32,000 bases of DNA from Candidatus Saccharimonadota bacterium (GCA_025349965.1 CP075337.1:240001-272000); one strand, 5' to 3'; counted from the first letter of the stretch, positions 6,493-21,832 are shown. Translations and numbers: made by a program. Notes: generated by a model not told the origin, from the sequence alone.

Positions 6493-7191
6493 ATGGATAG
6501 CCTGTCGCTTATTGGTGGAAATGAAGGCCGAAAAGGATTTACGATTGTTGAACTGACAATCGTTATTGCTGTCATAGGTATTCTAGTGGCGGTTGGGATT
6601 ATTGGATATGGTCCATGGCAGAAGAGCGTTCGCACAAATCAAGTGAAGAGTGATTTAAAGTCTGCCGCTGCCGCGATGGAAGACGCGCGTAACTTTTCTA
6701 ATGAGTATCCGGCGTCGGTGGGGGATGTTTTCTCTTCAGGCGGCGATGTGCAGCTGACGGGTGGAAGGATGTCTTCAGATACATTTTGTATAACGGGAAA
6801 GAGCGTCAAAGATTCTTCCATTGTGTTCAAGGTTGGCGCAAAAAGCACGGACCCGGCTGCGGGCGAGTGCGTTCAGATGGTAATGAGTTGTGCTGATTCG
6901 ATTTTTTATCAACCTTTTATGAGGGGCTTATATGTAAAATTTGATTGCGCAACGCCGACCGCCTCGGAGTACAAGCTATACTACCGTGATAATAGAGGTT
7001 CGGGTTGGGTTGAAGTAGGGCTGGCTTCTCCCGATGCAAGTGGCTGGTATTTTTTCGATGAAAACTCTCCTCTGACGCTATCCTATATGGATGACCAGAG
7101 TGGCGCACATGGTGGTGCGGTCAAGTTTACTGCAGTTGGTTCTGATGGGTCTGCTGAAGATGTTATAAACTATGGGGCGATACAGGAGTAG
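6493..7191 (+). CDS. type IV pilin-like protein (prepilin N-terminal cleavage/methylation domain) with an extra C-terminal domain
   Basis: Leader MDSLSLIGGNEGRKG followed by FTIVELTIVIAVIGILVAVGIIGY. This gives the G/F cleavage site, Glu at +5 and the hydrophobic alpha-1 helix. About 100 additional C-terminal residues and 4 Cys follow. Confidence 0.8.
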   Translation: MDSLSLIGGNEGRKGFTIVELTIVIAVIGILVAVGIIGYGPWQKSVRTNQVKSDLKSAAAAMEDARNFSNEYPASVGDVFSSGGDVQLTGGRMSSDTFCITGKSVKDSSIVFKVGAKSTDPAAGECVQMVMSCADSIFYQPFMRGLYVKFDCATPTASEYKLYYRDNRGSGWVEVGLASPDASGWYFFDENSPLTLSYMDDQSGAHGGAVKFTAVGSDGSAEDVINYGAIQE

Positions 7192-8449: not shown

Positions 8450-8848
8450 ATGAGGCAGCAATTTTTAACTTTTCTTGTTCGGTGGGCCCTTAATAGCCTA
8501 GGACTTTGGGTAGCCGTACGACTACTTGGCACGGGGCATCATAACGTTGATGTAACGGCTGGGTTTTGGGGGTTTCTTTTTGCAGGACTTATCTTTTCTT
8601 TGGTGAATAGTCTACTGAAGCCACTTTTGGTAATTGTATCGCTACCGGCTATACTTTTGACGCTTGGCCTTTTTACTGTTGTTGTAAACGGTATACTTGT
8701 ATATATATCACTTGCACTTGCTCCTGGCCTTTCTATGACATTTGGCAACTCAATTATTACAGGAATTATCCTGAGTTTGGTAAACTATATAGTAGGTGCA
8801 GCTGTTGAAGTTCGGACAGAGAATATGAGGAGAAACTATGTCGATTAA
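8450..8848 (+). CDS. phage-holin-family-4-like (YvlD/DUF360-type) small membrane protein
   Basis: 132 aa with 4 predicted TM helices. The pattern WALNSLGLWVAVRLL...FLFAGLIFSLVNSLLKPLLVIVSLPAILLTLGLFTVVVNG is typical of this chromosomal family. Confidence 0.7.
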   Translation: MRQQFLTFLVRWALNSLGLWVAVRLLGTGHHNVDVTAGFWGFLFAGLIFSLVNSLLKPLLVIVSLPAILLTLGLFTVVVNGILVYISLALAPGLSMTFGNSIITGIILSLVNYIVGAAVEVRTENMRRNYVD

Positions 8849-9065
8849 TGAGATTCTACAAATTGTAATGATTGGTTCAGCGGTTTTGCTGGTTATAGCT
8901 ATTATTTTGCAACAGCGTGGTGCAACGCTTGGCGCTGGGTTTGGTAGCTCTGGTGAGCTTTACACAACTCGTCGAGGTGTTGATAAGAACCTTTTTGAAG
9001 CAACGATTGTGCTTGCGGTTATTTTCGTAGTATCAATCTTGGCTGGTCTACTCATTCCTGCCTAG
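8838..9065 (+). CDS. secG: preprotein translocase subunit SecG
   Basis: 75 aa with two TM helices separated by a Gly-rich loop (ILQQRGATLGAGFGSSGELYTTRRG). It overlaps the upstream gene by 11 nt. Confidence 0.8.
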   Translation: MSINEILQIVMIGSAVLLVIAIILQQRGATLGAGFGSSGELYTTRRGVDKNLFEATIVLAVIFVVSILAGLLIPA

Positions 9066-9075
9066 GAAGGGGAGC

Positions 9076-10884
9076 GTGGTGGACAAAGACGATCCAGTAA
9101 AAGATTCCAAACGATGGCGAAGGCTCTCGAAGATGAGCTTTAGTTCTAAAGATCTTTCAAAACGCATGAAGCGAGTTGAAGGTGTTACTGTTCGCCATGC
9201 TCGTCGCTTTGTGTTGAAGCGATGGAGTAGTTTTCGTGACGCTCGGCGACACGTTGCCGTCTGGGTGCTACTTGTTGGGTTGCTTGTCGCAGCTGCGGGT
9301 GTACAGTTTTGGTGGTATCAAAAAAGTTATACTGCCGATGCATATACGACAGATGGCACATATGCCGAAGCGCTTCTTGGTCCGGTTGAAACACTCAACC
9401 CGATATTCGCGCAGTCAAATGCGGAAGAGGCTGCAAGCAAACTCCTCTTTTCAAGGCTTTTTACGTACGATGCTACTGGTAAGGTTGGCTTTGATTTAGC
9501 AAATAGCATGAAGATTAGTGACGATGGGACTGAATATACAATTGGTATTCGGCCTGATGTTCAGTGGAGTGATGGGGTCTACGTGCGAGCCCGTGATGTT
9601 GTATATACGGTAAACCTTATCAAAAACCCCGTAACGCGCTCTACACTTTCTGGGTGGGATGGGGTAATGGTTTCGGCGGTTGATGATGCTACGGTGAAAT
9701 TTAAGCTACCAGCTCCATATGCAGCTTTTCCGCACGCCATTCAGTCACTTCCTGTCTTGCCGGAACATTTGTTGCGTGATGTTGAGCCGAGTCGCATGCG
9801 TGAAAACTCGTTTAGTATGCGACCCGTAGGGAGTGGTCCATTTACACTACGTCTTCTTCAGACAATTGACAGCACGGCTGGCCGAAAGGTTGTTCATCTT
9901 GCCCGTAGTCAGAACTTCCATGGCGGCACTCCTCGCCTTAGTAGGGTGCAGCTCCATGTCTATAAAGATACAGAGGCGATTCGCCATGCATTGGCGACTT
10001 CGGAGGTTAATGCTGCGAATGATCTTTCAATCATCGGCGCAAGGGAGGCCGCGGGTAAGCGGTATAGTCTCAGCACTGTACCGGTGAAGGGTGGAGTGTA
10101 CGCTTTGTTCAATACTACTGCAAGCACTCTTAGAGACGCGAAGGTTCGTCAGGCGCTTCAGATTGGGACTGACACTGATGCAGTGCGCAACTCTATTGCA
10201 GAAGGTATTCCATCACTCCATCTCCCGTTTGTGAATGGGCAGGTTGGCGGAAGTATGCCAAAGGCACCGACATACAGCAAAAGTGATGCGGAAAAGATTC
10301 TCGACGATGCTGGATGGAAACTTGATGGCTCTGTACGCAAAAAAGATGGAGTTGCTCTTGAGCTCTCTGTTGTAACCATGAAGAATGCCGACTACGAGCG
10401 AGCACTAAAGACGCTATCTGAGCAGTGGCAGGGTCTTGGTATATCAGTGAAAACTGAAGTTGTTGACCCGACTGATGTTACACAGAATGTTACGCAAAAT
10501 ATCCTACAACCTCGACGCTACGATGTTCTTATCTATCAGCTCTCTATCGGTGGAGACCCGGATGTGTATGCGTACTGGCATAGCTCGGGTGCGGATGATG
10601 GGTATAATTTCTCCAATTACAGCAATCCTGTCAGTGATGATGCACTTGTGAGCGCGCGTACGAGCACAAACCCGGCACTTCGGGCTGCGAAGTATGCTAC
10701 GTTTGCGAAAGAATGGATGAAAGACGTGCCGGCAATCGGTTTGTATCAGGCAACTGTGCAATATGTACATTCGCACCATGTACATGTTGACGCCTCTTCT
10801 ATGGTTCTTAATATTCCAACGGATAGGTATAACTCAGTCCGCTATTGGTATGTTGGCGAACGGCAAGTATTTACGACACCATAA
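9076..10884 (+). CDS. ABC transporter substrate-binding protein, family 5 (peptide/nickel, OppA/DppA-like), N-terminally membrane-anchored
   Basis: A basic N-terminal region of about 60 aa and one TM helix (VAVWVLLVGLLVAAAGVQFWWY) precede a family-5 SBP body (LLFSRLFTYD...GKVGFDLA...WSDG, PVGSGPF). The start is uncertain: GTG 9076, GTG 9079 or ATG 9133. Confidence 0.8.
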   Translation: MVDKDDPVKDSKRWRRLSKMSFSSKDLSKRMKRVEGVTVRHARRFVLKRWSSFRDARRHVAVWVLLVGLLVAAAGVQFWWYQKSYTADAYTTDGTYAEALLGPVETLNPIFAQSNAEEAASKLLFSRLFTYDATGKVGFDLANSMKISDDGTEYTIGIRPDVQWSDGVYVRARDVVYTVNLIKNPVTRSTLSGWDGVMVSAVDDATVKFKLPAPYAAFPHAIQSLPVLPEHLLRDVEPSRMRENSFSMRPVGSGPFTLRLLQTIDSTAGRKVVHLARSQNFHGGTPRLSRVQLHVYKDTEAIRHALATSEVNAANDLSIIGAREAAGKRYSLSTVPVKGGVYALFNTTASTLRDAKVRQALQIGTDTDAVRNSIAEGIPSLHLPFVNGQVGGSMPKAPTYSKSDAEKILDDAGWKLDGSVRKKDGVALELSVVTMKNADYERALKTLSEQWQGLGISVKTEVVDPTDVTQNVTQNILQPRRYDVLIYQLSIGGDPDVYAYWHSSGADDGYNFSNYSNPVSDDALVSARTSTNPALRAAKYATFAKEWMKDVPAIGLYQATVQYVHSHHVHVDASSMVLNIPTDRYNSVRYWYVGERQVFTTP

Positions 10885-10927
10885 GGTGTCGTTTTCTTTG
10901 TTTGGGAGTGGTGGCAATCGATAATAA

Positions 10928-10952
10928 AAAACTTCCCAAAAAAGGAAGTTTT
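10928..10952. terminator. bidirectional hairpin terminator between the SBP gene (+) and tRNA-Val (-)
   Basis: Stem AAAACTTCC (10928-10936) / GGAAGTTTT (10944-10952) with loop CAAAAAA. The A and T runs form part of the stem. Confidence 0.7.
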
Positions 10953-10964
10953 ATCATTTCTATA

Positions 10965-11041
10965 TGGTGGGCGCTGAGGGGCTCGAACCCCCGACCCCCT
11001 CGGTGTAAACGAGGTGCTCTAGCCAACTGAGCTAAGCGCCC
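10965..11041 (-). tRNA. tRNA-Val (anticodon UAC), CCA encoded
   Basis: The reverse complement folds as a cloverleaf: acceptor GGGCGCT/AGCGCCC, D-arm GCTC-AGTTGGCTA-GAGC, anticodon arm CCTCG-TTTACAC-CGAGG, T-loop TTCGAGC, 3' ACCA. Confidence 0.95.
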
Positions 11042-11110
11042 GGGTCTGTAGTAGTTACTACAGTACATAACTATACACTACGAGAGGTGTCATTGCAAGG
11101 GCTTAGTTCA

Positions 11111-11139
11111 TTGCCTTTTTATGTAAATTATGGTATAAT
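11111..11139 (+). promoter_or_regulatory. sigma-70-type promoter (TTGCCT-17 nt-TATAAT with TGg extension) for ORF 11177
   Basis: -35 TTGCCT at 11111-11116, a 17-nt spacer, and TGG TATAAT at 11131-11139. Confidence 0.6.
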
Positions 11140-11176
11140 AAAATAGTACCTTGATGATCGAGTGATTGGATATGCA

Positions 11177-11497
11177 ATGGACGTTGAAGGTGGTACCGCG
11201 TATGAGGCGGGAGACCTGACTTCCGACCACGGTGTGGAAATATTCCGCGCCTGGAAGAAGTCGCTTCCGGGCTACGACTGGACGAGGGCTGTAGTCGACA
11301 GGTATGACGGCTTGACGCTGTTTACCGACGATGAGTTTTCCGCTAGTCTTCACTTCGTGAATGCACTGTGTGGATACGGAGGATCTGGTCCGCATGCAAC
11401 TGCCGAGATCTTGCATGAAGCTGGCTTTGGCGAGCTGGGTGAATTGCTCGGGACGGTAAGTAGCGGCGCAAACACGAAACTCAGTTTCACGAAGTAG
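11177..11497 (+). CDS. hypothetical small protein (106 aa) with CGYGGSGPHATAEIL motif; higher GC than its surroundings
   Basis: Open frame with its own promoter and a strong terminator. Hand-counted GC is 90/154 (58%) from 11177. No family recognised. The start is ATG 11177 or GTG 11162. Confidence 0.55.
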   Translation: MDVEGGTAYEAGDLTSDHGVEIFRAWKKSLPGYDWTRAVVDRYDGLTLFTDDEFSASLHFVNALCGYGGSGPHATAEILHEAGFGELGELLGTVSSGANTKLSFTK

Positions 11498-11511
11498 CCT
11501 TCATCAAGGGT

Positions 11512-11550
11512 GGCCCGGTGATATAGTTCACCGGGCCCTCTTTCTTTTCT
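11512..11550 (+). terminator. rho-independent terminator of ORF 11177
   Basis: 10-bp GC-rich stem GGCCCGGTGA (11512-11521) / TCACCGGGCC (11528-11537) with a 6-nt loop. A T-rich tail TCTTTCTTTTCT follows. Confidence 0.8.
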
Positions 11551-11560
11551 ACGCAAATGA

Positions 11561-11569
11561 TGTTACAAT
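11561..11569 (+). promoter_or_regulatory. extended -10 (TGtTACAAT) upstream of tRNA-Leu(GAG)
   Basis: TG at 11561-11562 and TACAAT at 11564-11569. The tRNA 5' end is at 11597. Confidence 0.5.
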
Positions 11570-11596
11570 TAACAAGTTCTACCGAACACTTAGCAT

Positions 11597-11684
11597 GCGG
11601 CGGTGGCGGAATTGGTAGACGCGCTAGCTTGAGGGGCTAGTGAGCATTGCGCTCGTGGAGGTTCAAGTCCTCTTCGCCGCACCA
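11597..11684 (+). tRNA. tRNA-Leu (anticodon GAG), long variable arm, CCA encoded
   Basis: Acceptor GCGGCGG/TCGCCGC, anticodon arm CTAGC-TTGAGGG-GCTAG, a long variable arm, T-arm GGAGG-TTCAAGT-CCTCT, 3' ACCA. Confidence 0.95.
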
Positions 11685-11748
11685 GTAGAGAGTATAAAGA
11701 TTCCAGAATTTGGGATCTTTTTTATTGAAAGTGATAAAGCACCTAGAT

Positions 11749-11770
11749 GCTCACGCTTGTGAGCTTTTTC
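11749..11770 (+). terminator. hairpin terminator downstream of tRNA-Leu(GAG)
   Basis: Perfect stem GCTCAC (11749-11754) / GTGAGC (11759-11764) with loop GCTT, followed by TTTTTC. Confidence 0.65.
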
Positions 11771-11868
11771 GAGACGTCGTATACTGACGGTAGTCGCCAT
11801 TCGGACTAAGAGTGGACTCTGGGCTTTGGAGGGGCGACGTCGGCGCGATAGTGAAAGTGAGGATGACT

Positions 11869-12099
11869 ATGGGATGTCATGATCGAGAAAGTAATTACAA
11901 CGCTTTGAAGTATCACGAAGAGAAGGGGTGTTGGCTGGCGGGCTGGTCGCCCGGTATTCGGTCAATCGAGGCGCTGGATCGTGACCGGGTTATCGAGAAG
12001 ATTGGCTCTGGTTGGCCAGGCGCTTCAATCGATGACTGGGATATCGTCCAACTGGACTCCGGCTCTTGGAAGGCTACCTATAAAGTACGCGTGCCTTGA
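11869..12099 (+). CDS. hypothetical small protein (76 aa), Trp/Gly-rich, no recognised family
   Basis: GAGGA (11859-11863) sits 5 nt before the ATG at 11869. The track's GTG 11812 start lacks an SD. Hand-counted GC is 123/229 (54%). TATACT lies at 11780-11785 upstream. Confidence 0.45.
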   Translation: MGCHDRESNYNALKYHEEKGCWLAGWSPGIRSIEALDRDRVIEKIGSGWPGASIDDWDIVQLDSGSWKATYKVRVP

Positions 12100-12187
12100 C
12101 TCAACCTGCATTTGCGAGCGGATGATGTTCTTTGGTGAACTCTCCGCTCGTAGATGCGGGTTATTTTTTTGATTAAAACCGAATTTA

Positions 12188-12196
12188 TGCTATAAT
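12188..12196 (+). promoter_or_regulatory. extended -10 (TGcTATAAT) for typA
   Basis: TG at 12188-12189 and TATAAT at 12191-12196. A roughly 40-nt leader carries SD GGGAGGG (12227-12233) before the ATG at 12243. Confidence 0.55.
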
Positions 12197-12242
12197 TAAG
12201 GTAAGTAACTTATCTACGTAGCCCAAGGGAGGGCTTATTTTC

Positions 12243-14063
12243 ATGAAAGACCCAAAATTTATTCGAAATATTGCCATCATTGCGCACGTTGACCATGGTA
12301 AGACAACACTTGTTGATGGCCTCCTCAAGCAGAGTAATACATTCCGCGAAAACCAGGCTGAAATGGACCAATCGCTTATCATGGACAGTGGTGATCAAGA
12401 GCACGAGCGCGGGATTACCATCACGGCAAAGCAGACCTCTGTCTATCACGGTGATTACAAGATTAATATTATTGACACCCCGGGGCACGCCGACTTCTCT
12501 GGTGAGGTTGAGCGCACGCTCAACATGGCTGACGGTGTTATTTTGGTTGTTGACTCTCAAGAGGGTCCAATGCCACAAACAAAGTTCGTTCTTTCAAAGG
12601 CACTTGAGCTTGGCTTAAAGCCGGTTGTGATGATTAACAAGATTGATAAGCCATCTCGCCGCATCTCAGAAGTAGAAGATGAAGTTTCTGAACTTTTCTT
12701 GGAGCTTGCGATTGACGACAGTCAGCTTCACTACCCGATTTATTACGCAATTGGTCGTGACGGTAAGGCGTGGAGTAGCCTTCCTGATAACCCATCTGAG
12801 CATGCAGACCTTGAGCCAATTTTTGATGCCATTATTAACGACATTCCGGCGCCAACAGTTGAGCTTGAAAAGCCATTCCAGATGCTTGTGACATCTCTTT
12901 ATCATGATTCTTTCCTTGGTAAGTATGCAATCGGACGTATTAACCGAGGCTCTCTTAAGCAAGGTCAGCAAATCGCGCTCATGAAGCGTGGTGGCGCTGT
13001 TGTAAGCGCTAAGGTTGATAAGCTTTTCGGATATCGCGGGCTTAATCGCGAAGAAATTAGCGAAGCCGGGGCGGGTGACATTGTTGCTGTGACTGGTATT
13101 GCAGATGCGCACATTGGTGAAACGCTTGCTGATAAAGAGCAGCCTGAAGCGCTCCCTGTGATTGATATTGAAGCACCGACAATTAGCATGTACCTCGGCC
13201 CAAATACGAGTCCACTCAAGGGTAAGGAAGCGAAGTACAACACAAGCCGCCAAATTGGTGACCGTCTTAAGCAAGAACTTGAGACGAATGTCTCACTTCG
13301 CGTTGCTGAAGAGGGGATTGGATTTGTCGTTTCTGGTCGTGGCGAACTTCACCTCTCCGTACTTATTGAGACACTCCGTCGCGAAGACTTTGAATTTGAA
13401 GTTGGGCGGCCACAGGTGGTGACAATTGAAGAAGACGGCGTTACCAAAGAGCCAATTGAAGAGCTTCTTATTGAAGTATCTGCAGAATTCCTCGGTGCAG
13501 TAAGCCAAGAGCTTGGTGCGCGTCGCGCAACCACCGTGAAGCAGGAACAGACAAGTAGTGGCACGACTCGCGTGACGTATCTTATTCCAACTCGCGCGAT
13601 GATTGGTCTTCGCAATCTTCTCCTTACCGCAACCAAGGGAACGGTGATTATGAATAGCCTTCCTCACGGCTATCAACCACTCGGTCCAAAGCTTCAGCAA
13701 CTTCGCAACGGTGCACTTGTTGCGCACGAAGCAGGCGTCACAACTGCCTACGCGCTTGATACGGCAGCTGCACGCGGCGAGCTTTTCGTTGGTCCAGGCG
13801 TAACGGTATATCAGGGTATGATTGTTGGTCTCTATAACCGTGCCGGTGATCTTGACATTAACGTCTGTAAGGCGAAGCAACTTACAAATATGCGTAGCTC
13901 TTCAAGTGATGGTGCTATTCAGCTTACTCCTTATACCGACTTGAGCCTTGAGCAGTCAATTGACTTCATTGAAGATGACGAGCTGCTTGAAGTAACGCCG
14001 CAGAATCTTCGTCTTCGCAAGCGCTATCTTGATCCAAACCAGCGCAAGCGCGCAAACAAGTAG
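12243..14063 (+). CDS. typA: translational GTPase TypA/BipA
   Basis: [19 protein letters not shown] (G1), DTPGHADF (G3) and NKIDK (G4). The 606-aa length and the C-terminal [22 protein letters not shown] are typical of BipA. Confidence 0.95.
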
Positions 14064-14106
14064 CCTTCTTGTTTAGTGGGTGCGCCAGCTCTATACTAGA
14101 AAGAGT

Positions 14107-15687
14107 ATGGCGCGAAAAATAAACACCGACCCCATTAAGACCGCCCTTGTTAAAACTGCCGGCTTGCTATTAAAGTCTGATAAAGACGTTGACGAGAAGC
14201 TTGGTGAGTTGCTTCTTGATGTGCAGCGAATGAACTTGTATGGCGACGGAAAGACGTTTGTTGATTTAGTGCCAGCTCGTCGCCTTAAGACGATTAAAGA
14301 GGAATATGCACTCGTAAAGCAAGACCCGCACTTTGATTTGCGTGAGTTTGTGGCGCGTCATTTCTATGATGCGACAGAGGGTATATATCCGCATCAAGAT
14401 AGTGCTCGCCCAAGTGACACTCCGCTTGAACATATCGAAGGTCTCTGGAAGATTCTAGAGAGGCGTAATCGAGTGACGCGTGGCTCGTTGCTTGCATTGC
14501 CGTATACATATGTTGTACCTGGTGGTCGGTTTAATGAGCAGTTTTACTGGGATACCTATTTCATTATGCTAGGACTCGCCTCGTCTGGTAAGTGGAAGCG
14601 TATAGAGGGGATGATGAAAAATTATACCCATGAGATCCGGAAATATGGGTATATACCCACGGCAAATCGAACCTATCTTTTGAGCCGCTCTCAGCCGCCC
14701 TTCTTTTCGCATATGGTGACGTTGCTTGCTTCGCACAGGCGAAAGGGTACAGTACTCCGTGAATATCTGCCGTATCTTTTGGCTGAACATCGATTTTGGA
14801 TGCGTGGACGGTCAAAGCTTGCTGCTACAGAGCATAATGCATTTCGCCGCGTGGTGAGCATGGTGGATGGAGCGCTCATGAATAGGTATTATGATAACAA
14901 GGCTACGCCTCGGCCAGAATCTTTGCGGGAAGATATGGAGACCGCTGAAAAATCGGGGCGAGCGGATCCTGATCGGCTTTATCTTCATCTTAGGGCGGGT
15001 GCTGAATCAGGTTGGGACTTTAGTTCGCGGTGGTTTTTAGATCCATATGATATTCACACGATTCACACGGCAGATATTATTCCAGCTGATTTGAATAGTC
15101 TGCTGTATCATCTTGAAATGACTATTGCTGATGCGTACCGTGCATCACTGAATTTGGTAAAGGCTCGGCAATTTAAGAAAAAAGCAAAGCAGCGGGCAGT
15201 GGCGATTGATACGTATCTCTGGGATGAAGATACGGGATTTTATAGAGATTACAATTTTCACCACCAGTCATCTATGCCGGTGCTTAGCTTGGCTGGAGTA
15301 TTTCCCCTCTATGTAGGCATTGCAACACAGGCGCAGGCAGATAGGGTGGCACGAGTTTTGGAGCGAGATTTTTTACGCCCCGGTGGTTTAGTGGCGACAC
15401 TTATTGAAAACGGACAACAGTGGGATGCGCCCAACGGCTGGGCGCCACTTCACTGGATTGTCATTCAGGGTTTGAGAAGATACGGACACACTGAACTGGC
15501 GGATACGATTACCGAGCGTTGGCTTACTCTGAACGAAAAGGTGTATGCGGAGAGTGGAAAATTTATTGAGAAATATGACGTTGGGAGCGAAGATGGCTTG
15601 GGTGCTGGTGGCGAATATACGCTCCAGGATGGGTTTGGCTGGACGAACGGGGTGTACGAAGCCCTTAAGCGAGATTTGCGTATTTAA
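14107..15687 (+). CDS. alpha,alpha-trehalase, glycoside hydrolase family 37, no signal peptide (cytoplasmic type)
   Basis: Both GH37 signature motifs are present: PGGRFNEQFYWDTYF and QWDAPNGWAPL. The ATG at 14107 follows TATACT (14092-14097). The track's GTG at 14080 is a possible alternative start. Confidence 0.9.
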   Translation: MARKINTDPIKTALVKTAGLLLKSDKDVDEKLGELLLDVQRMNLYGDGKTFVDLVPARRLKTIKEEYALVKQDPHFDLREFVARHFYDATEGIYPHQDSARPSDTPLEHIEGLWKILERRNRVTRGSLLALPYTYVVPGGRFNEQFYWDTYFIMLGLASSGKWKRIEGMMKNYTHEIRKYGYIPTANRTYLLSRSQPPFFSHMVTLLASHRRKGTVLREYLPYLLAEHRFWMRGRSKLAATEHNAFRRVVSMVDGALMNRYYDNKATPRPESLREDMETAEKSGRADPDRLYLHLRAGAESGWDFSSRWFLDPYDIHTIHTADIIPADLNSLLYHLEMTIADAYRASLNLVKARQFKKKAKQRAVAIDTYLWDEDTGFYRDYNFHHQSSMPVLSLAGVFPLYVGIATQAQADRVARVLERDFLRPGGLVATLIENGQQWDAPNGWAPLHWIVIQGLRRYGHTELADTITERWLTLNEKVYAESGKFIEKYDVGSEDGLGAGGEYTLQDGFGWTNGVYEALKRDLRI

Positions 15688-16868
15688 AAAATCTTCTCGT
15701 CTTTTAGCTCTTCTGGAAGAAACCCTTTTTGGTGCTTAAAGTCCGCTTCCCATTTATAATCTTTGGCGTAGCCCAGATCTTTCATGAGTTTTGTTGGTGC
15801 ATTGCGTAGGTGAAGCGGTACGGGCGCGTCTGGGTATTGTTTTGCAAGCTGCTGCGCTTTATGCATAGCGCTGGTTGTGTGGCGAGATTTTTCTGATTTT
15901 GCTAATGCGGTTGCCACGTGAAAAAGAATATAACTTGATTCGGGCATGCCAATCCGTTCTACTGCTTGGAATGCATTGAGTGCTAGGCCAAGAGCGCCGT
16001 TGCCTGCAAGGCCAATATCCTCGGAAGCAAAAATAAGCATACGGCGGGCGATAAATTTCGGATCTTCGCCAGCGTCAATCATGCGGGCAAGGTAGTAGAG
16101 CGTTGCATCAACATTGCTTCCGCGCATACTTTTAATAAATGCAGAAATAACGTTATAGTGCATTTCACCTTTTTTGTCGTAGCCAGGTACGCGTTTTTGA
16201 GCCGCGGTTTTAACGGTTTCAATAGTAACTTTTTTACTAAGATTAAGCGCTAACTCTAAATTACCAAGTGCGACGCGTGCATCTCCGCCGGAAAGCTCCG
16301 CTATATAATCAAGTGCGTCGTCTGAAACGCGTTTGGTTGCTTTTTCTGCAGTCACAGCACGGTGAAGGATAGTTAGCATGTCTTTCTTGGCGAGCGGCTC
16401 AAGTACGAGAACGCGACTGCGACTCAGGAGCGGGGTGATAACTTCAAAGCTCGGGTTTTCGGTCGTGGCGCCAATAAGAGTAATAAGCCCAGACTCTACA
16501 TGGGGCAAGAAGGCATCTTGTTGCGCTTTATTGAAGCGGTGAATCTCATCAACAAAAAGGAGCGTACGAAGCTGAAGATTCCAGTTCTGCTTGGCGTGCT
16601 CGATGACTTTCTCAACATCTTTTTTGCCACTTGTGACCGCAGAGAGCTCGATAAACTCTGCCTCGACTTCTTTGGCAATTACCCGTGCGAGCGTGGTTTT
16701 ACCGCTACCAGGAGGTCCCCATAGAATGAGACTGACGGGCTCTCGTGTCGTAACGATTCGTTGAAGAATTTCATTCTTGCCCAATAGATGAGATTGTCCA
16801 ATGACTTCTTCGAGCGTCTGTGGGCGCATGCGTTCAGCAAGAGGGATGCGCGCGGTGTTACTTTCCAC
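15684..16868 (-). CDS. rarA: replication-associated recombination protein A (AAA+ ATPase RarA/MgsA)
   Basis: N-terminus [22 protein letters not shown], Walker [10 protein letters not shown] and Walker [12 protein letters not shown]. The C-terminal MgsA-type helical domain is present. GTG start at 16868. Confidence 0.9.
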
Positions 16869-17175
16869 GCCTAGCCTTGTCTTTACTGAGTACCCATTGA
16901 ACGGAAGGGCTTACGTCTTTGTCTGTTCGGTGGATGCACCCCATCCAGCAGCAAGGCCTTCTTGTCCCCTCGGAGAGTTCTTCCTCGGCGCGTTTGATGC
17001 GTCGCGTGCGTGTTTCGTTGAGTTTTGCATTTTCAACCCAGCAAATCCATTCATTGCGAGCAAGCGGTGTGATATCATTCCATGTTGCGAGCACTGCCTT
17101 ATTTCTAAGGAGTACTACTTCAAGGTCTTTAGGGAGCTTGTCATGGATAGTGCCTACTGGAGGTGCCTGTTTCAT
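16858..17175 (-). CDS. YdeI/OmpD-associated (OmdA-domain) family protein
   Basis: 105 aa with WNDITPLARNEWICWVENAKLNETRTRRIKRAEEELSEG and a C-terminal RRPCCWMGCIHR, typical of this family. Its 3' end overlaps the rarA start by 11 nt. Confidence 0.7.
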   Translation of the reverse strand: MKQAPPVGTIHDKLPKDLEVVLLRNKAVLATWNDITPLARNEWICWVENAKLNETRTRRIKRAEEELSEGTRRPCCWMGCIHRTDKDVSPSVQWVLSKDKARRGK

Positions 17176-17209
17176 ATATCTATTTTACTACAAATAGGAT
17201 TTACGGGTC

Positions 17210-17218
17210 TGGTATACT
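17210..17218 (+). promoter_or_regulatory. extended -10 (TGgTATACT) for the SPFH gene
   Basis: TGG TATACT at 17210-17218, SD GGGGAG at 17235-17240, ATG at 17246. Confidence 0.55.
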
Positions 17219-17245
17219 AAAGGTAGTAACTAATGGGGAGAGAAT

Positions 17246-18004
17246 ATGATGTTTTTGTGGGTTATCGCTGTCATCGTCGCCATCTTTATTTTGAGTGGTT
17301 TGAAGGTTATTAATCAGTATCAGCGCGGGGTTGTGTTGACATTGGGTAAATTTACGGGTGTACGTCAGCCGGGACTACGAGTTGTCGTTCCGATTTTTCA
17401 GCAGATTATTCGTGTTGATGTTCGTTCGACGCCTATCGACGTACCAAAGCAGGAAGTAATTACAAAAGATAACGTAACAGCTGGCGTTGATGCCGTTGTT
17501 TATTTCCGTGTTCTTGACGCACCAAAGGCCGTACTTGAAACGACCAACTACGTATATGCAACAAGTCAGTTTGCACAAGCGGCGCTTCGTGACATTACGG
17601 GTAATTTTGAGCTCGATGAGCTTCTTTCAAAACGTGAAGAGATTAGCGAAAAGATTAAAGAGATTGTTGATACTCAAACTTCACAGTGGGGAATTGATGT
17701 CGAGAATGTAAAGATTCAGAATATTGAGCTCCCCGCAGACATGAAGCGTGCTATGGCGAAGCAGGCAGAAGCAGAGCGTGAACGTCGAAGTAATATTATT
17801 AATGCCGAAGGTGAGCGTGCCGCCGCTGAGACACTTGCAGAGGCTGCGCGTATTATTTCATCCACTCCTGGAGCACTAAACCTGCGTACACTTAACACAA
17901 TCGAGCGTATTAGTACCGAGCCGAGTCAGAAGACGACTATGCTGTTTCCAATTGAATTGATTGATGCAGTCCGCAACATCGGTCAAGGTCTTAATAAGAA
18001 GTAG
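17246..18004 (+). CDS. SPFH/band-7 (stomatin/prohibitin-like) membrane protein
   Basis: An N-terminal TM helix precedes an SPFH core (INQYQRGVVLTLGKF...PGLRVVVPIFQQIIRVDVR) and a coiled-coil AEAERERR region. Confidence 0.9.
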   Translation: MMFLWVIAVIVAIFILSGLKVINQYQRGVVLTLGKFTGVRQPGLRVVVPIFQQIIRVDVRSTPIDVPKQEVITKDNVTAGVDAVVYFRVLDAPKAVLETTNYVYATSQFAQAALRDITGNFELDELLSKREEISEKIKEIVDTQTSQWGIDVENVKIQNIELPADMKRAMAKQAEAERERRSNIINAEGERAAAETLAEAARIISSTPGALNLRTLNTIERISTEPSQKTTMLFPIELIDAVRNIGQGLNKK

Positions 18005-18016
18005 TCAACTTGCCAT

Positions 18017-18051
18017 CTGGAACAGGGGTTGAAAAACTACCCCAGTTCCAG
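18017..18051 (+). terminator. long hairpin after the SPFH gene (no T-tract), directly followed by TACAAT for tRNA-Phe
   Basis: CTGGAACAGGGG (18017-18028) pairs with CCCCAGTTCCAG (18040-18051): 12 bp with one A-A mismatch and an 11-nt loop. TACAAT lies at 18052-18057. Confidence 0.45.
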
Positions 18052-18094
18052 TACAATGAGCAAGTGCTAGCTCAGTCTGGCATGTGTAAAGCGT

Positions 18095-18170
18095 GGCTCT
18101 TTAGCTCAGTTGGTAGAGCAGAGGCCTGAAGAGCCTTGTGTCCCCAGTTCGAGTCTGGGAGGAGCCACCA
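18095..18170 (+). tRNA. tRNA-Phe (anticodon GAA), CCA encoded
   Basis: Acceptor GGCTCTT/AGGAGCC, D-arm GCTC-AGTTGGTA-GAGC, anticodon arm GAGGC-CTGAAGA-GCCTT, T-arm CCCAG-TTCGAGT-CTGGG. Confidence 0.95.
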
Positions 18171-18275
18171 AATACACGCAAGAAGTAAATATATTTTTGT
18201 CAGGTTTTGTGCCTGACTTTTTTGATGAGTGATTACCGTAAGCGCATTATTTCATGGTATGATAGAGCTATATTT

Positions 18276-19580
18276 ATGCGCATATCACTACGACGAAGAA
18301 TCCACAGTCTTTTACTTGTCTTGGCGGCAGGGGTGCTTGTTTTTGCGAATACATCCACTGCGCAAGCGTTGGATACCCAGTTTCATAGCTCTAACGATAT
18401 TCTTTTTTACGGTGAAGAGGGAGGGCTATGCGGGGATAGTAGTGGTACCAGTGGTGGAAGCGCTCCAACTTCGCTAAGAGGCGACTCTGTCCCGGAGAAA
18501 ATTTGGAACTATCTTATTGATAGAGGAATGACCCCGATTGCAGCAGCAGGGATAATGGGAAATATGGAGGCAGAGTCTGCGTTCAATCCATGGGTTACTA
18601 ATGGTATCGGCGCATTTGGACTTGTGCAATGGCTTGGTGGTCGCGCCAATGGAGTAAAAGCAAAGCTGTCAGAGGCTGGAATCACCCCTGCGGATTATAA
18701 CGATGCCAATATAGACAAAGGAATTATGGTGGAACTCGAGTATCTATGGAGCGAAGGTCCACCCAATATTCCCCTCCCGTTTAGTGATATTGCCGCTCAA
18801 TTGAATCGCGAAAAGGAGGTCGGTGGAGACACGTCAATAGATGGTAGCCAGTGGGATTCTTATAAGGCCAATGAGGGCAACGGAAGCGTACTTTATTTTC
18901 ATGCGGCAATAGAACGCTCGAGTAATGAGGGTATTGAAACTCGTATCCAAAGCGGCAAGACTTTTATGGAACAGTTTGGTGGGGCTGGCGGGTCTGGTTC
19001 TGGTGGTGACTGCGGAAGTATCGGCGAGGGTGGTATGACAATCGAGCAGGCGGAAGCTCTTATGAAATGGTGGGTTGCGAATCGGGATGTTACTGTTACA
19101 AAGGCAGACTACTGCAACGGTATCGACAAATATCAGTGCTTCTCATTTTCAAGTTTTGTTCATCACTATATTCTTGGCGCGCAGTGTGTTAACGGTGGTG
19201 CTTATGGCGCGGATGTCATTGCAACCGGATTAATATCTCAGGGATGGAAGAAGGTTACGGAAGATACAATCCAGCCATTTACGGTGACACAGCATCCAAA
19301 CGAGGGTGACGGAGGTGGCAACCCGCATACGTTTGTTGTTCTTGGGATTCAGGGCGGGAAGATAATTGTGGGCGAGAATGACGGCGGCAACTATAATGAT
19401 AACTTTACTAATACGCCAGGGTTTGGCCCTAACGCGAAGGTGTACACGGTTGATAGTATCGCCCATTACAGGGAGATTACAGGCCCCTATGTAGGTGATG
19501 TATTTGCTGCGCCGCCAGATCCAGCGGCAGCTACACAAGCTATGACTAAATTTATGCAAGAAAAAGGCATAGGAGGGTAA
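18276..19580 (+). CDS. secreted two-domain peptidoglycan hydrolase: phage-tail-lysozyme-like N-domain plus CHAP/NlpC-P60-like C-domain
   Basis: Sec signal peptide MRISLRRRIHSLLLVLAAGVLVFANTSTAQA. Motif IAAAGIMGNMEAESAFNP...GAFGLVQWLGGR, a Gly/Ser linker GGAGGSGSGGDCGS, then Cys (YQCFSF), His (NPHTFVVLG) and VGENDGG in CHAP order. I prefer the ATG at 18276 over the track start at 18207. Confidence 0.7.
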   Translation: MRISLRRRIHSLLLVLAAGVLVFANTSTAQALDTQFHSSNDILFYGEEGGLCGDSSGTSGGSAPTSLRGDSVPEKIWNYLIDRGMTPIAAAGIMGNMEAESAFNPWVTNGIGAFGLVQWLGGRANGVKAKLSEAGITPADYNDANIDKGIMVELEYLWSEGPPNIPLPFSDIAAQLNREKEVGGDTSIDGSQWDSYKANEGNGSVLYFHAAIERSSNEGIETRIQSGKTFMEQFGGAGGSGSGGDCGSIGEGGMTIEQAEALMKWWVANRDVTVTKADYCNGIDKYQCFSFSSFVHHYILGAQCVNGGAYGADVIATGLISQGWKKVTEDTIQPFTVTQHPNEGDGGGNPHTFVVLGIQGGKIIVGENDGGNYNDNFTNTPGFGPNAKVYTVDSIAHYREITGPYVGDVFAAPPDPAAATQAMTKFMQEKGIGG

Positions 19581-19581
19581 A

Positions 19582-20346
19582 GTGCAGATTGAAAAAAAAC
19601 GACTAAGAATTCTTATTAGTATTGTAGTAGGTGTAGTTGTATTGATTGTCGCCTCGGTTGCTTACTATGCGTACAATAAAGAAAAAAATCTAGAGTCTGA
19701 ACGAGGTAAGTCGATAAGCCTTTACTATAATATGCTTACGATTGAGAACATCAAGGATTTTCCTTTCAAGGGTGTTGAGGATGATCTAGCCGAAGGTGTA
19801 TTCGGCGTTACGATTGCAAAACATGGGTACGATAAGGACAGTAGGTATACTGGTACAATACGGGACGGTTCTTATTCATCCGACATCAAGTCAAAGTATA
19901 CACAGAAAGAGTTTATTTTCGATGCGCCTTCTGAGAAGAAATCTTGGAAAATTATCGTTTCAATGGTTAATGACAGAATCGGAACGAATGGCGTACTCGC
20001 GCAATGTCTTCCCAGCGAAGAGCTAAAGTACGGCCCATTTGAATGCAAGGCCGCTCGATTTGATGAAGTTGATAGTAGTACCGTCAGTGCGGATCCGCTT
20101 ATTAGTAAACTTCCGCACAAGGCTCCTTACTATACGATTTCCGGTGTTGCAGAGTCAAAGACTGAGACTGGGCTTGCGATTAGAATTATGCTTAATGCAA
20201 ATAGCGACAGTACGAAAAAATTCTTCCTAGGCTATCAAGAGGATGCTCTTTCATGGATACGAGAACAGGGTGTAGACCCCGCTAATTATAAAATTGTTTG
20301 GCGTAATCTCGCCGGAAACGAAGTTCCATACCCAATTACTCAGTAG
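19582..20346 (+). CDS. N-terminally membrane-anchored protein of unknown function, translationally coupled to the hydrolase gene
   Basis: The GTG at 19582 lies 1 nt after the upstream stop, with AGGAGGG at 19571-19577. One TM helix (LRILISIVVGVVVLIVASVAYYAY) precedes a soluble domain of about 220 aa. No motif recognised. Confidence 0.6.
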   Translation: MQIEKKRLRILISIVVGVVVLIVASVAYYAYNKEKNLESERGKSISLYYNMLTIENIKDFPFKGVEDDLAEGVFGVTIAKHGYDKDSRYTGTIRDGSYSSDIKSKYTQKEFIFDAPSEKKSWKIIVSMVNDRIGTNGVLAQCLPSEELKYGPFECKAARFDEVDSSTVSADPLISKLPHKAPYYTISGVAESKTETGLAIRIMLNANSDSTKKFFLGYQEDALSWIREQGVDPANYKIVWRNLAGNEVPYPITQ

Positions 20347-20392
20347 AGAGTCTTGAATAATTATAAACAATTCGCTATAATTTACAGGGTAC

Positions 20393-20468
20393 GCGGGTTT
20401 AGCTCAGTTGTTAGAGCGCTTCCTTGCCATGGAAGAGGCCAGGAGTTAGAGTCTCCTAACCCGCACCA
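20393..20468 (+). tRNA. tRNA-Gly (anticodon GCC), CCA encoded, non-canonical D-loop and T-loop
   Basis: All four stems are perfect: GCGGGTT/AACCCGC, GCTC/GAGC, CTTCC/GGAAG, AGGAG/CTCCT. The anticodon loop is TTGCCAT. The D-loop is AGTTGTTA and the T-loop TTAGAGT, not the usual AGTTGGTA and TTCGART. Confidence 0.9.
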
Positions 20469-20481
20469 AAAATGAATTTTG

Positions 20482-20508
20482 AGACGCTCCGGCGTCTTTT
20501 TTATTTTC
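20482..20508 (+). terminator. rho-independent terminator after tRNA-Gly
   Basis: Stem AGACGC (20482-20487) / GCGTCT (20492-20497) with loop TCCG, followed by TTTTTTATTTT. Confidence 0.8.
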
Positions 20509-20629: not shown

Positions 20630-21832
20630 CTAGTTGTCTGTTTCGCTCGCATCAGCAGGCTCGACGTTTGGCATCTTTTTAACCAATGCTTCTCGTAGCT
20701 GCGCAGCAAAGTTGAGTTGTGCGATACCTATTCCTTCGTCAAGCTCTTGCTTTGCATCCGCAAAGGTTTCTGTGTAGGCATCAGTGGTTTTTTCGGGCAT
20801 GGTATGAACTGCACCGGGGACGTTATAGATACTACACTGCATATTATTTTCATAAGCATAGCCGCAAATTTTGTATGAAGAAAGCTCGTTGTTTACCATA
20901 TAGTCATAGCCTGGCTCCTCGGTGCCTACGTACAAAATAGTAGGAAGCGGTTTTTTTCCTTTATACTTTTCGGCTATCTCTTTTAGGTTAGACTGAATAT
21001 CCGCGTCTGCAACTGCAAGTGTTTGGTCAACAAGTAGCCAGGTACCCGGTAGTTTTGGCTGCTGGATGTGCCCTGCTGCCTGCAGGGCTGTTTTGCCAAA
21101 ATCTGCAATACGGGTGGTGAAGGGCCCTTCGTCGAAGCGGTCACGCATAAAATAAATTTCACCTATAAGCCGCACAAGGGTAGAATATTTTGCCCCTGGA
21201 ATTGATGAAAGTGTATAAGCGAATTCAACTTCTTTTTGGCGTAGGGGACGCAAGCCATCAATGCCATCAGGGGTTGAGATGGGCGTGAGGCTTCGGATTG
21301 TAATGTCTGGATTATCTGCAATTTCTGTTGCGGTTTCTGTCGATATTGCCCCTCCCGCACTATATCCAACGAAATCGAGCGTCGTTATGTCACGCTCCTC
21401 TGCGAGCGAGATGATCTTTTCCGCGAGTTTTTTAGGGTTTAGTGGTGCGTTTCCATAACTCACCGACCACGACTCGCCATCGAGATTTTGCTTTATGCCG
21501 GGGCCGAATACTTTTGCGATAGGATCGGCGTCGTAGGTTCCAAACCCATTAAAGAAGACGACAGCACTCGAATCATTATTTGAGTCGAGAGGTTTATCAT
21601 AAACCGAGACACTTGCTTCCGCGGAAGCTTGTCGCTCCATGTTTATATTAACATCAAGAGCGTAGGAGCCTAGGGCGGTTGTTGTGGCGAGGAGGAGCGC
21701 TTCTGCGCCCAAGATGCGCCGTCTGCGACGTCGAATCTTTTTATCTGCATAGACTAACGCCTCAGCTTGTGGAATTATTTCATCGCTGGGGGCTGTTTGT
21801 GTTTCTAGTGGGGCTCCGGACTCAAAAGGCAT
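20630..21832 (-). CDS. membrane-anchored/exported alpha/beta-fold hydrolase (GxSxG lipase/esterase type)
   Basis: An Arg-run and TM segment (KKIRRRRRRILGAEALLLATTTALGSYAL) come first. The nucleophile elbow is FVGYSAGG, with candidate Asp (PGYDYMV) and His (GAVHTMP). No closer family recognised. Confidence 0.65.
   Translation of the reverse strand: MPFESGAPLETQTAPSDEIIPQAEALVYADKKIRRRRRRILGAEALLLATTTALGSYALDVNINMERQASAEASVSVYDKPLDSNNDSSAVVFFNGFGTYDADPIAKVFGPGIKQNLDGESWSVSYGNAPLNPKKLAEKIISLAEERDITTLDFVGYSAGGAISTETATEIADNPDITIRSLTPISTPDGIDGLRPLRQKEVEFAYTLSSIPGAKYSTLVRLIGEIYFMRDRFDEGPFTTRIADFGKTALQAAGHIQQPKLPGTWLLVDQTLAVADADIQSNLKEIAEKYKGKKPLPTILYVGTEEPGYDYMVNNELSSYKICGYAYENNMQCSIYNVPGAVHTMPEKTTDAYTETFADAKQELDEGIGIAQLNFAAQLREALVKKMPNVEPADASETDN

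Follow-up and report, generated by a model that had tools for sequence, protein, structure and literature searches.

A predicted VirB1-like peptidoglycan hydrolase and its coupled membrane-anchored partner in the Saccharibacteria epibiont TM7i

Introduction

CwlT of ICEBs1 and TcpG of pCW3 are exported proteins, encoded in type IV secretion system (T4SS) clusters, that combine a glycosidase with a papain-fold peptidase of the NlpC/P60 or CHAP type, and to our knowledge no conserved partner encoded directly downstream has been described for either of them. In the operon of pCF10, prgL presumably follows prgK directly. The "SLT" domain of PrgK is really a muramidase, with gp13 as its sole structural homologue in the PDB, and it is followed by a CHAP domain; PrgK binds the bitopic protein PrgL 1:1, and PrgL leaves the activity unchanged and has been proposed to localise PrgK to the channel (PMC11323569). 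Contacts between VirB1-like and VirB8-like proteins have also been reported for OrfA and OrfG of ICESt3 and for TraG and TraM of pIP501. Here we analyse two adjacent genes in a 32,000-nucleotide stretch of the genome of a Candidatus Saccharimonadota bacterium (GCA_025349965.1, CP075337.1:240001-272000; this whole stretch is referred to as the window), which encode an exported two-domain hydrolase and, immediately downstream, a membrane-anchored protein that we call the partner, and we report that the same pair closes a T4SS operon in other Saccharibacteria.

The T4SS of Patescibacteria are related to the monoderm MPF_FATA conjugation machinery, and the survey that established this found that outside Paceibacteria the link between VirB1-like hydrolases and VirB4 was only a loose one, and detected no equivalent of VirB8 in Saccharimonadia; its supplements do not mention TM7i or KI440 (PMC12102498). 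The Saccharibacteria T4SS is the first one reported to be essential for the growth of its owner (PMC10633639, PMC12857230). In Southlakia epibionticum ML1, where the T4SS is essential for epibiotic growth, SEML1_0008 (VirB4), SEML1_0007 (M23/M15-like), SEML1_0006 (hydrolase) and SEML1_0005 (an exported protein of 211 amino acids, aa) are all essential by transposon sequencing (PMC10633639). SEML1_0006 has 643 aa and is annotated with "Phage tail lysozyme", glucosaminidase and "Cysteine proteinases" domains, and SEML1_0005 is an "exported protein of unknown function" with a PEGA/Ig-like and a small alpha/beta domain; Wang et al. (2023) counted SEML1_0006-0019, which include the NTF2-like candidate SEML1_0012, as the T4SS and left SEML1_0005 uncharacterised (PMC10633639). 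The same genome encodes a second PF18013 protein, SEML1_0667, which is non-essential, lies outside the T4SS locus and is followed by rsmA (PMC10633639). In diderms, SagA, a T4SS-associated muramidase of Brucella, has been described together with its inhibitor PhiA (PMC8334348).

An exported hydrolase with a lysozyme-like and a divergent CHAP domain

In the records of Candidatus Saccharibacteria bacterium TM7i, the two proteins appear unchanged as KI440_01365 and KI440_01370; TM7i is a cultivated epibiont whose host is a Leucobacter and in whose description T4SS are not discussed (PMC9894109). Identical proteins, in the same SPFH-enzyme-partner order, are found in a second, independent assembly (a contig of 408 kb from a metagenome-assembled genome), and because of this and of the many homologues of each protein we regard both genes as real. 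The features of the hydrolase gene are the following, with their support in brackets (pLDDT, predicted local distance difference test).

18276..19580, + strand: hydrolase gene, 434 aa, KI440_01365, predicted VirB1-like bifunctional peptidoglycan hydrolase of T4SS type (PF18013; orthologues in T4SS operons)
18255..18263, + strand: possible extended -10 element, TGgTATGAT, 12 nt 5' of the ATG (read from the sequence; absent from the output of the two-hexamer scan)
18276..18368, + strand: Sec signal peptide, residues 1-31, predicted cleavage AQA/LD (sequence; equivalent signal peptides in homologues)
18381..18410, + strand: motif FHSSNDILFY at the mature N-terminus, residues 36-45 (conserved in orthologues; pLDDT 25-33)
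18471..18980, + strand: lysozyme-like domain of the Phage_lysozyme2 / phi29 gp13 type, residues ~66-235 (PF18013, gp13 alignment, model)
18981..19028, + strand: Gly/Ser-rich interdomain linker, residues 236-251 (sequence; pLDDT <50)
19029..19577, + strand: divergent CHAP (papain-fold) domain, residues 252-434 (invariant Cys and His, family profile, Foldseek)

The hydrolase begins MRISLRRRIHSLLLVLAAGVLVFANTSTAQA/LD, a signal peptide of n-h-c form, and has no membrane anchor of its own. A longer open reading frame (ORF) from TTG-18207 finds no support, as the homologues begin at the position equivalent to the ATG. No Shine-Dalgarno sequence was seen before this ATG (18276), and the possible extended -10 element, if used, would give a near-leaderless mRNA. 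The motif close to the mature N-terminus belongs to a family pattern, approximately [FY]xxxN[DGN][IV]x[FY][FY][DN]P..C, which is present in nearly all the Saccharibacteria T4SS-type hydrolases collected below (L001-L054, 390-1045 aa) and is kept irrespective of the domains that follow; it is predicted to be disordered in isolation and may serve as a docking peptide.

Residues 74-146 of the N-domain, IAAAGIMGNMEAES...GAFGLVQWLGGR, match PF18013 (Phage_lysozyme2) with an E-value (E) of 2.8e-16 and 60.4 bits, against a gathering cut-off of 28.2, and PHROG tail, tape-measure and endolysin families match the same region. The domain also aligns to the lysozyme domain of phi29 gp13 (3csr, E 7e-4), placing Glu100 (codon 18573-18575) opposite the Glu of gp13 "MQSES", which we take to be the catalytic residue in gp13, and Glu100 is invariant in alignments of 7, 8 and 11 sequences. 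In a structure model of the enzyme built from the 8-sequence alignment this domain has a pLDDT of 80-92, and Foldseek matched it to the lytic transglycosylases MltE, Slt and MltF with low significance (prob 0.5-0.66). These data point to a gp13-type muramidase-like domain with Glu100 as its predicted catalytic residue. Like the window enzyme, gp13 (3csr/3csq) is a two-domain wall-degrading protein with a homologous lysozyme domain, but its second domain is of the M23 type and it is a tail-tip protein of the virion, whereas the window protein is a Sec-exported cellular protein in which the second domain is a CHAP.

The C-domain of the window enzyme showed no direct match to Pfam CHAP (PF05257); Amidase_5 alone was returned, at E 0.033, a family that we take to belong to the same clan (Peptidase_CA) as CHAP. 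The relatives of this domain were more informative: it matched the hidden Markov model (HMM) of its family at 7e-54, 6 out of the 9 closest family C-domains aligned match PF05257 (best 4.8e-8), and a profile of these nine matched the CHAP domain of PcsB (9r6w, 4cgk) at E 5.8e-4, with the GHTG...GE segment aligned. The putative catalytic trio would consist of Cys288 in YQCFSF (19137-19139), His351 in NPHTFVVLG (19326-19328) and Glu367 in GENDGG (19374-19376). Cys288 and His351 are invariant in the 8- and 11-sequence alignments. At the third polar position relatives have E, H or Q; in the window protein, Glu367 stands opposite the Glu of PcsB "VSE". In the model, a helix (291-299) follows Cys288 and His351 stands at the start of the first of two strands (352-359 and 362-367); the top Foldseek matches were the CHAP lysin Ly7917 (prob 0.98-0.99) and the phi812 hub CHAP (prob 0.75), although E was only 0.017-0.05 and the TM scores 0.37-0.42. 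By transitive homology, the C-domain is assigned to the papain fold as a divergent CHAP.

We conclude from these comparisons that the enzyme most probably joins a gp13-type lysozyme-like domain and a divergent CHAP domain in one Sec-exported, anchorless protein. A first-pass annotation, made by reading the sequence, had described ORF 18276-19580 in these terms, as an exported polypeptide with two lytic domains, a signal peptide ending AQA, a phage-tail-lysozyme-like N-domain, a Gly/Ser linker and Cys, His and ENDGG in papain-fold order, and each of these elements was borne out, the second lytic domain through family homology. The last residues of the enzyme (~401-434; 19476-19577) form a conserved C-terminal tail, FA(A/Y)PP...(helix)...KGIGG, with a predicted helix at 416-430, which is common to L001 and L053 and occurs in a shorter form in other type-A CHAP hydrolases.

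A coupled, bitopic partner from an unannotated family

The features of the partner gene are as follows.

19571..19577, + strand: Shine-Dalgarno sequence AGGAGGG for the partner, within the last codons of the hydrolase (sequence)
19582..20346, + strand: partner gene, 254 aa, KI440_01370, predicted bitopic N-in/C-out protein (homologue family; AlphaFold2 model)
19609..19674, + strand: transmembrane anchor, residues ~10-31, with KKRLR before it (sequence; model helix 3-41)
19735..20004, + strand: domain D1, residues ~52-141, a strand, a helix and five antiparallel strands (model)
20074..20313, + strand: C-terminal beta-beta-alpha-beta module, residues ~165-244 (model; family comparison)

The GTG start codon of the partner (19582) lies 1 nt after the TAA of the hydrolase (19578-19580), and the gap between the two genes is kept within -25 to +25 nt in orthologous loci. 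This overlap of signals had been spotted in the first pass, as had the single anchor of the 254-aa partner (one N-terminal hydrophobic helix), the GC count of 55/159 in its first 159 nt and its lack of a recognised motif. All of these hold: the partner has no described family in Pfam, NCBIfam, PHROG or PADLOC, 79 members of its own family lack a meaningful Pfam or NCBIfam match, and its fold has no significant match in the PDB (none at E<=1e-3) or in BFVD. The AlphaFold2 model is nevertheless confident (pLDDT 88.7) and comprises the anchor helix, D1 and the C-terminal module. Cys142 (20005-20007) and Cys155 (20044-20046) are invariant in the family and likely form a disulfide.

A word-indexed search with the partner recovered the partner itself alone, whereas exhaustive HMMER searching with a limit of E<=1e-3 gave 155 cluster representatives, whose lengths are with few exceptions 230-260 aa. 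This family is two-tiered: full-length homologues occur in L001, L007-L009, L011, L021, L038, L039, L045, L049-L054 and elsewhere, and more distant downstream proteins (that of L002 and the 211-aa proteins of L004 and L010) share with the partner only the anchor and the C-terminal module, which is the most widely shared part of the family of downstream genes. The partner is thus not an orphan, but a member of a sizeable, fast-evolving and unannotated family with a confident yet unmatched fold. Foldseek listed 50 matches for it, all with E>=0.1. For D1 these were de novo NTF2-like designs (E 0.7-1.1, TM score ~0.3), and the C-terminal module weakly resembles type II secretion system pilotins (5zdh by profile, E 0.02; Foldseek 6i2v prob 0.8 and 4ftf prob 0.4). 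With VirB8-like proteins it shares the bitopic N-in/C-out topology and a gene placed directly downstream of the hydrolase. Assignment to the VirB8-like proteins PrgL, TraM or TcpC was rejected by sequence, as there was no match and a search of the partner profile against PDB sequences returned none of them at E<=10. A phage or defence origin was likewise rejected, with no match in PHROG, PADLOC or BFVD.

The pair closes a T4SS operon in other Saccharibacteria

The four closest homologues of the enzyme are all encoded in loci with VirB4 (P-loop_TraG/DUF87), a TraC-like protein (PF26593) and PrgI (PF12666), and in each case the next gene after that of the hydrolase is unannotated and encodes 211-255 aa. 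An enzyme-anchored scan of 185,579 species genomes yielded 41 loci, in which gene order was established with custom HMMs. A recurrent order was found in Saccharibacteria: PrgI-like, TraC-like, VirB4, a protein of 800-1040 aa with an M23 or VanY domain, 0-2 small genes, the hydrolase and the partner. Among the Saccharibacteria loci with ~8 kb or more of upstream sequence (n=20), 16 contain a full VirB4, usually accompanied by the PrgI-like and TraC-like genes, and 2 (L013, L030) a VirB4 cut at the contig end; it is absent from the remaining 2 (L021, L039), where it was not found within 10 kb of the pair. L001, L002, L004 and L050 are further loci with T4SS context. In all Saccharibacteria loci, including those where the partner HMM fails, the hydrolase gene is closely followed by one that encodes an N-anchored protein, 148-525 aa long. 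When partner-family proteins found independently were taken as the starting point, a PF18013 hydrolase was encoded directly upstream in all contigs with enough context, the pair lying beside recF-dnaN-dnaA. The downstream gene is conserved beside such hydrolases, as the first-pass proposal had required, and the coupling is kept across the Saccharibacteria loci.

Because the same pair ends a T4SS operon in other Saccharibacteria, we class the enzyme, on homology and gene context, as a VirB1-like hydrolase of a monoderm MPF_FATA-type T4SS (the PrgK/TraG/CwlT class), although the window copy itself is unlinked. As in that class, a glycosidase and a cysteine-peptidase domain are combined in one exported protein.

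The closest known systems are PrgK and PrgL, together with TraG and TraM/TraH of pIP501 and OrfA and OrfG of ICESt3. The resemblance to PrgK and PrgL extends to the order of the domains, a gp13-like muramidase and then a CHAP, to the bitopic N-in/C-out topology of the partner and to the genes for VirB4 and PrgI-like proteins that accompany the orthologues of the window pair in a T4SS operon of MPF_FATA-like type. It has limits: PrgK and TraG have an N-terminal anchor of their own and PrgK also a LytM domain, whereas the window enzyme is anchorless and its signal peptide cleavable; PrgL is NTF2-like (VirB8-like), and the partner has no detectable sequence similarity or significant fold similarity to it; and the window copy, unlike PrgK/PrgL, is unlinked from T4SS genes. 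CwlT and TcpG are likewise two-domain exported hydrolases, but their glycosidase families differ from that of the window enzyme. The closest case within the phylum is SEML1_0006/0005, which shows the same order as the orthologous loci and lies beside recF/dnaA; SEML1_0006 has an additional glucosaminidase domain that is absent from the window enzyme, and SEML1_0005, by analogy with the L004 and L010 proteins, would share with the partner just the anchor and the C-terminal module, and not D1.

Across its best 120 homologues, VirB4 is 86-95 % identical, and none of these 120 could be recognised as that of TM7i. One of these, P0234, is 89 % identical to Saccharibacteria VirB4 and comes from a contig of 957,675 bp labelled "Streptomyces caniscabiei" at NCBI; this suggests that a Saccharibacteria genome, possibly that of an unnoticed epibiont, was assembled together with a Streptomyces isolate or wrongly assigned to one.

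D1 co-varies with the CHAP subtype, and the wall-facing proteins evolve fastest

A downstream D1 was present in all 14 cases with a CHAP of the window type, and among those without it D1 was present in 1 (L045) and absent from 19 (Fisher p 1e-8, uncorrected for phylogeny). The association spans enzymes as different as the two-domain proteins of 434 aa, a lysozyme-GDSL-M23-CHAP protein of 1008 aa (L021) and a CHAP protein of 1000 aa without a lysozyme domain (L039), and because it holds across such different architectures, the tightest functional link appears to be that of the partner D1 to CHAP. This co-variation argues for a direct relationship between the CHAP domain and the partner, whether the latter is a tether or an inhibitor.

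Two loci carry several partner paralogues. In L039 (Candidatus Nanosyncoccus alces, 8505-17973), four of them surround a lysozyme+CHAP protein of 1045 aa and the 1000-aa CHAP protein, two consisting of anchor and D1 only, and in L045 (3392-4868) two stand in tandem; both arrays resemble arrays of immunity genes.

Pairwise identities were compared within the same operons (L001, L002, L008-L011), with the following ranges.

VirB4: 83-94 %
TraC-like: 56-76 %
PrgI-like: 44-66 %
Hydrolase: 28-53 %
Large M23 protein: 23-47 %
Partner: 18-31 %

Evolution is thus fastest in the proteins that face the wall, which is what co-evolution at the cell surface would lead one to expect. At the other end of the range, Saccharibacteria VirB4 is unusually conserved (83-95 % across lineages).

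Possible roles of the pair

We give somewhat more than even weight to the reading that the pair is a T4SS peptidoglycan-hydrolase unit relocated in TM7i, in which the partner binds, tethers and probably restrains the anchorless hydrolase through contact between D1 and CHAP; binding and tethering are proposed because of the analogy with PrgK-PrgL and the co-variation of D1 with CHAP. The enzyme would be exported by Sec and freed from its signal peptide, and its muramidase-like domain, through Glu100, and its CHAP domain, as a cysteine peptidase or amidase, would open the peptidoglycan locally and so let the T4SS apparatus cross the wall. The wall attacked would be the epibiont's own and possibly also that of the Actinobacterial host. 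The partner, made together with the enzyme and anchored with its ectodomain towards the wall, would bind it, D1 to CHAP, and so hold at the cell surface, under restraint, a lysin that could otherwise diffuse away. We infer that the relocated TM7i copy would still serve a T4SS.

Several observations weigh against this interpretation. Family and HMM scans found no VirB4, PrgI-like or TraC-like gene in the 32-kb window. The CHAP call for the window protein itself depends on homology by way of its relatives and on a model of moderate quality in this domain (pLDDT 45-80). The p value of the D1-CHAP association takes no account of shared ancestry. No VirB8-family structure is among the 50 matches listed for the partner, so that a VirB8-like identity was rejected by fold as well. 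Finally, the proposed equivalence of the partner and SEML1_0005 is one of analogy, through position, length and the C-terminal module of the look-alike proteins of L004 and L010.

Alternatively, the hydrolase might be an offensive lysin directed at the wall of a host or competitor, with the anchored partner as the immunity protein that blocks the CHAP or lysozyme site near the wall of the producer. The strict adjacency and coupling of the two genes, the very fast evolution of both and the tandem D1 paralogues around the hydrolases of L039 and L045, some with anchor and D1 only, are compatible with this, and the way in which D1 follows the CHAP subtype recalls the match between immunity domains and their cognate toxin domains. 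Moreover, cystatins inhibit papain-fold enzymes, and the order of secondary-structure elements in the D1 model is that of the cystatin-like/NTF2-like fold class, a comparison of topology only; yet no cystatin structure is found among the 50 matches listed, and similarity to known immunity or inhibitor families (PhiA, Tsi-type) was not found in Pfam, NCBIfam, PADLOC, PHROGs, the PDB or BFVD. Brucella SagA-PhiA is a precedent for a T4SS-linked hydrolase with a dedicated protein regulator (PMC8334348), a functional analogy from a diderm with unrelated sequences, in which PhiA appears not to be anchored as the partner is, and no similarity between the two was found. PrgL, on the other hand, is a downstream bitopic analogue that binds PrgK without altering its activity (PMC11323569), the hydrolase usually lies inside the operon of a secretion machine and not in an effector locus, and, given its Sec signal peptide, it is not an obvious candidate for delivery into a target as a substrate of the T4SS. 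We hold immunity to be unlikely on this evidence, while regarding it as the main rival. The first-pass annotation had leaned this way, proposing an offensive or interaction tool with a dedicated partner that could act as immunity, inhibitor or targeting factor; the conserved, coupled pair stands, but the proposal missed the T4SS context, which places the enzyme in the known VirB1-like class with PrgK-PrgL as precedent. Its companion claim that the enzyme is no housekeeping autolysin is plausible, given that orthologues sit in the T4SS operon essential for the epibiotic growth of Southlakia.

The partner could also be an independent structural, wall-spanning component of the T4SS or an adhesin that does not bind the hydrolase, the genes being adjacent through a shared operon and assembly step. 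Its gene stands where that of the VirB8-like scaffold stands in pCF10, VirB8-like proteins reach into the wall, a VirB8 equivalent has not been confidently assigned in Saccharimonadia (PMC12102498), and the C-terminal module has its weak resemblance to secretion-system pilotins. However, the pair stays together when apart from VirB4 (the window, L021, L039), D1 also follows a CHAP protein that is not a lysozyme-type hydrolase, the identity among partners (18-31 %) is far under that of core T4SS parts, and S. epibionticum already has an NTF2-like candidate in SEML1_0012, all of which makes this explanation improbable. Still less credible is that in TM7i the pair, once relocated, works as a common autolysin in growth or cell separation beside an unrelated membrane protein, with no remaining link to secretion or host. 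Such a role would suit the absence of T4SS genes from the window, the housekeeping neighbours (SPFH, HtrA, MgsA, BipA) and the existence in S. epibionticum of a non-essential PF18013 protein outside the T4SS locus; but the nearest homologues of both proteins are in T4SS operons, neither the coupling nor the full-length architecture nor the catalytic residues have been lost, and that same paralogue, SEML1_0667, lacks a downstream partner gene, rsmA following it instead.

A bolder extension of the preferred reading, a T4SS hydrolase unit with a tethering partner, may be worth stating although we think it rather doubtful: the partner family would comprise membrane-tethered regulators whose D1, a helix lying on a curved sheet, caps specifically one CHAP subtype, holding the two-headed lysin inactive on the surface of the epibiont until host contact, and hydrolase, partner and M23 protein would form a fast-evolving, host-wall-specific "drill" that, uncoupled from the T4SS operon in TM7i, may act independently on the Leucobacter wall. 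For Saccharimonadia, the comparison indicates that the VirB4 operon regularly ends with a hydrolase of the PF18013 type and an anchored protein coupled to it, that the middle domain of the anchored protein tracks the peptidase subtype and that the extracytoplasmic parts evolve several-fold faster than the ATPase. It provides a testable candidate for the part of the T4SS that breaches the wall and confers host specificity, and a context for an unannotated family of at least 155 clusters. As the enzyme class is already known, the advance is incremental and involves no new principle.

The tRNA interval and the surrounding genes

The pair stands between two tRNA genes, with the following features around it.

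18095..18170, + strand: tRNA-Phe (GAA), left border of the variable interval (ARAGORN; Rfam RF00005, 65.9 bits)
18199..18217, + strand: terminator-like hairpin and T-run after tRNA-Phe, 7-bp stem with 4 GC pairs (consensus match only)
20353..20381, + strand: promoter-like TTGAAT-17-TATAAT upstream of tRNA-Gly (10/12 consensus match only)
20393..20468, + strand: tRNA-Gly (GCC), right border (tRNA scan, Rfam, synteny in relatives)
20481..20498, + strand: terminator-like hairpin and T-run after tRNA-Gly, which would also stop read-through from the pair (consensus scan)

Both tRNA genes and the terminator-like hairpin after tRNA-Gly had been correctly placed in the first pass, and an Rfam scan of the region found no further RNA elements. 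Because of the hairpin after tRNA-Phe and the promoter-like site before tRNA-Gly, the two tRNA genes look like separate transcription units. Taking the bracket as a module, as had been suggested, did not survive comparison with relatives. The SPFH gene, which lies upstream, served as the anchor of a metagenome scan (80 loci), and the close relatives of window positions 17246-20468 that it yielded (L055-L071) keep the order trehalase, MgsA, SPFH, tRNA-Phe ... tRNA-Gly, and the spacer between the tRNA genes measures 49 nt (L058, L070), 282, 540 or 921 nt, ~1.1-1.2 kb (L055, L060) or 6.5 kb (L057), compared with 2.2 kb in TM7i. Its cargo is unrelated: L055 has a prepilin carrying the carbohydrate-binding domain CBM_4_9, L057 a MoxR-DUF58-VWA (Bat-like) cluster, and the enzyme, the partner and T4SS genes were found in none of the 80 loci. 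With a spacer that in relatives can be as short as 49 nt or as long as 6.5 kb, and with cargo that differs from case to case, the bracket is incidental. It marks an inter-tRNA hotspot of variable content that received the pair, by translocation or duplication, in the TM7i lineage, and is not a functional feature.

Insertion by a mobile element was considered and rejected, as there are no att-like direct repeats around the pair, the sole flanking repeat being a generic tRNA D-arm, and no integrase was found among the window genes. The GC content is 0.413 for the partner gene and 0.483 for the enzyme gene, against a mean of 0.468 +/- 0.022 for the genes of the window. The enzyme is therefore typical, and the partner is ~2.5 standard deviations under the mean, yet other window genes are comparable; a foreign origin by composition is weak, the low GC of the partner being equally compatible with fast evolution.

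The remaining genes of the window are housekeeping genes (BipA, trehalase, MgsA, SPFH, HtrA, LemA, an M48 peptidase, LigA, a Mur ligase, UvrC and an ABC transporter). Convergent to the pair and beside HtrA, positions 20630-21832 (- strand) encode a protein of 400 aa whose N-terminus has a hydrophobic segment and which contains the motif GYSAGG, a possible nucleophile elbow of an alpha/beta-hydrolase; Pfam and PADLOC gave no match for it. Positions 6493-7191 (+ strand) encode a type IV pilin-like protein of 232 aa with a prepilin-type N-terminal methylation motif (PF07963), and type IV pili are a feature stressed in the description of TM7i (PMC9894109). The interval between MgsA and SPFH contains overlapping ORFs on opposite strands, 16801-17220 (+, 139 aa) and 16858-17175 (-, 105 aa).

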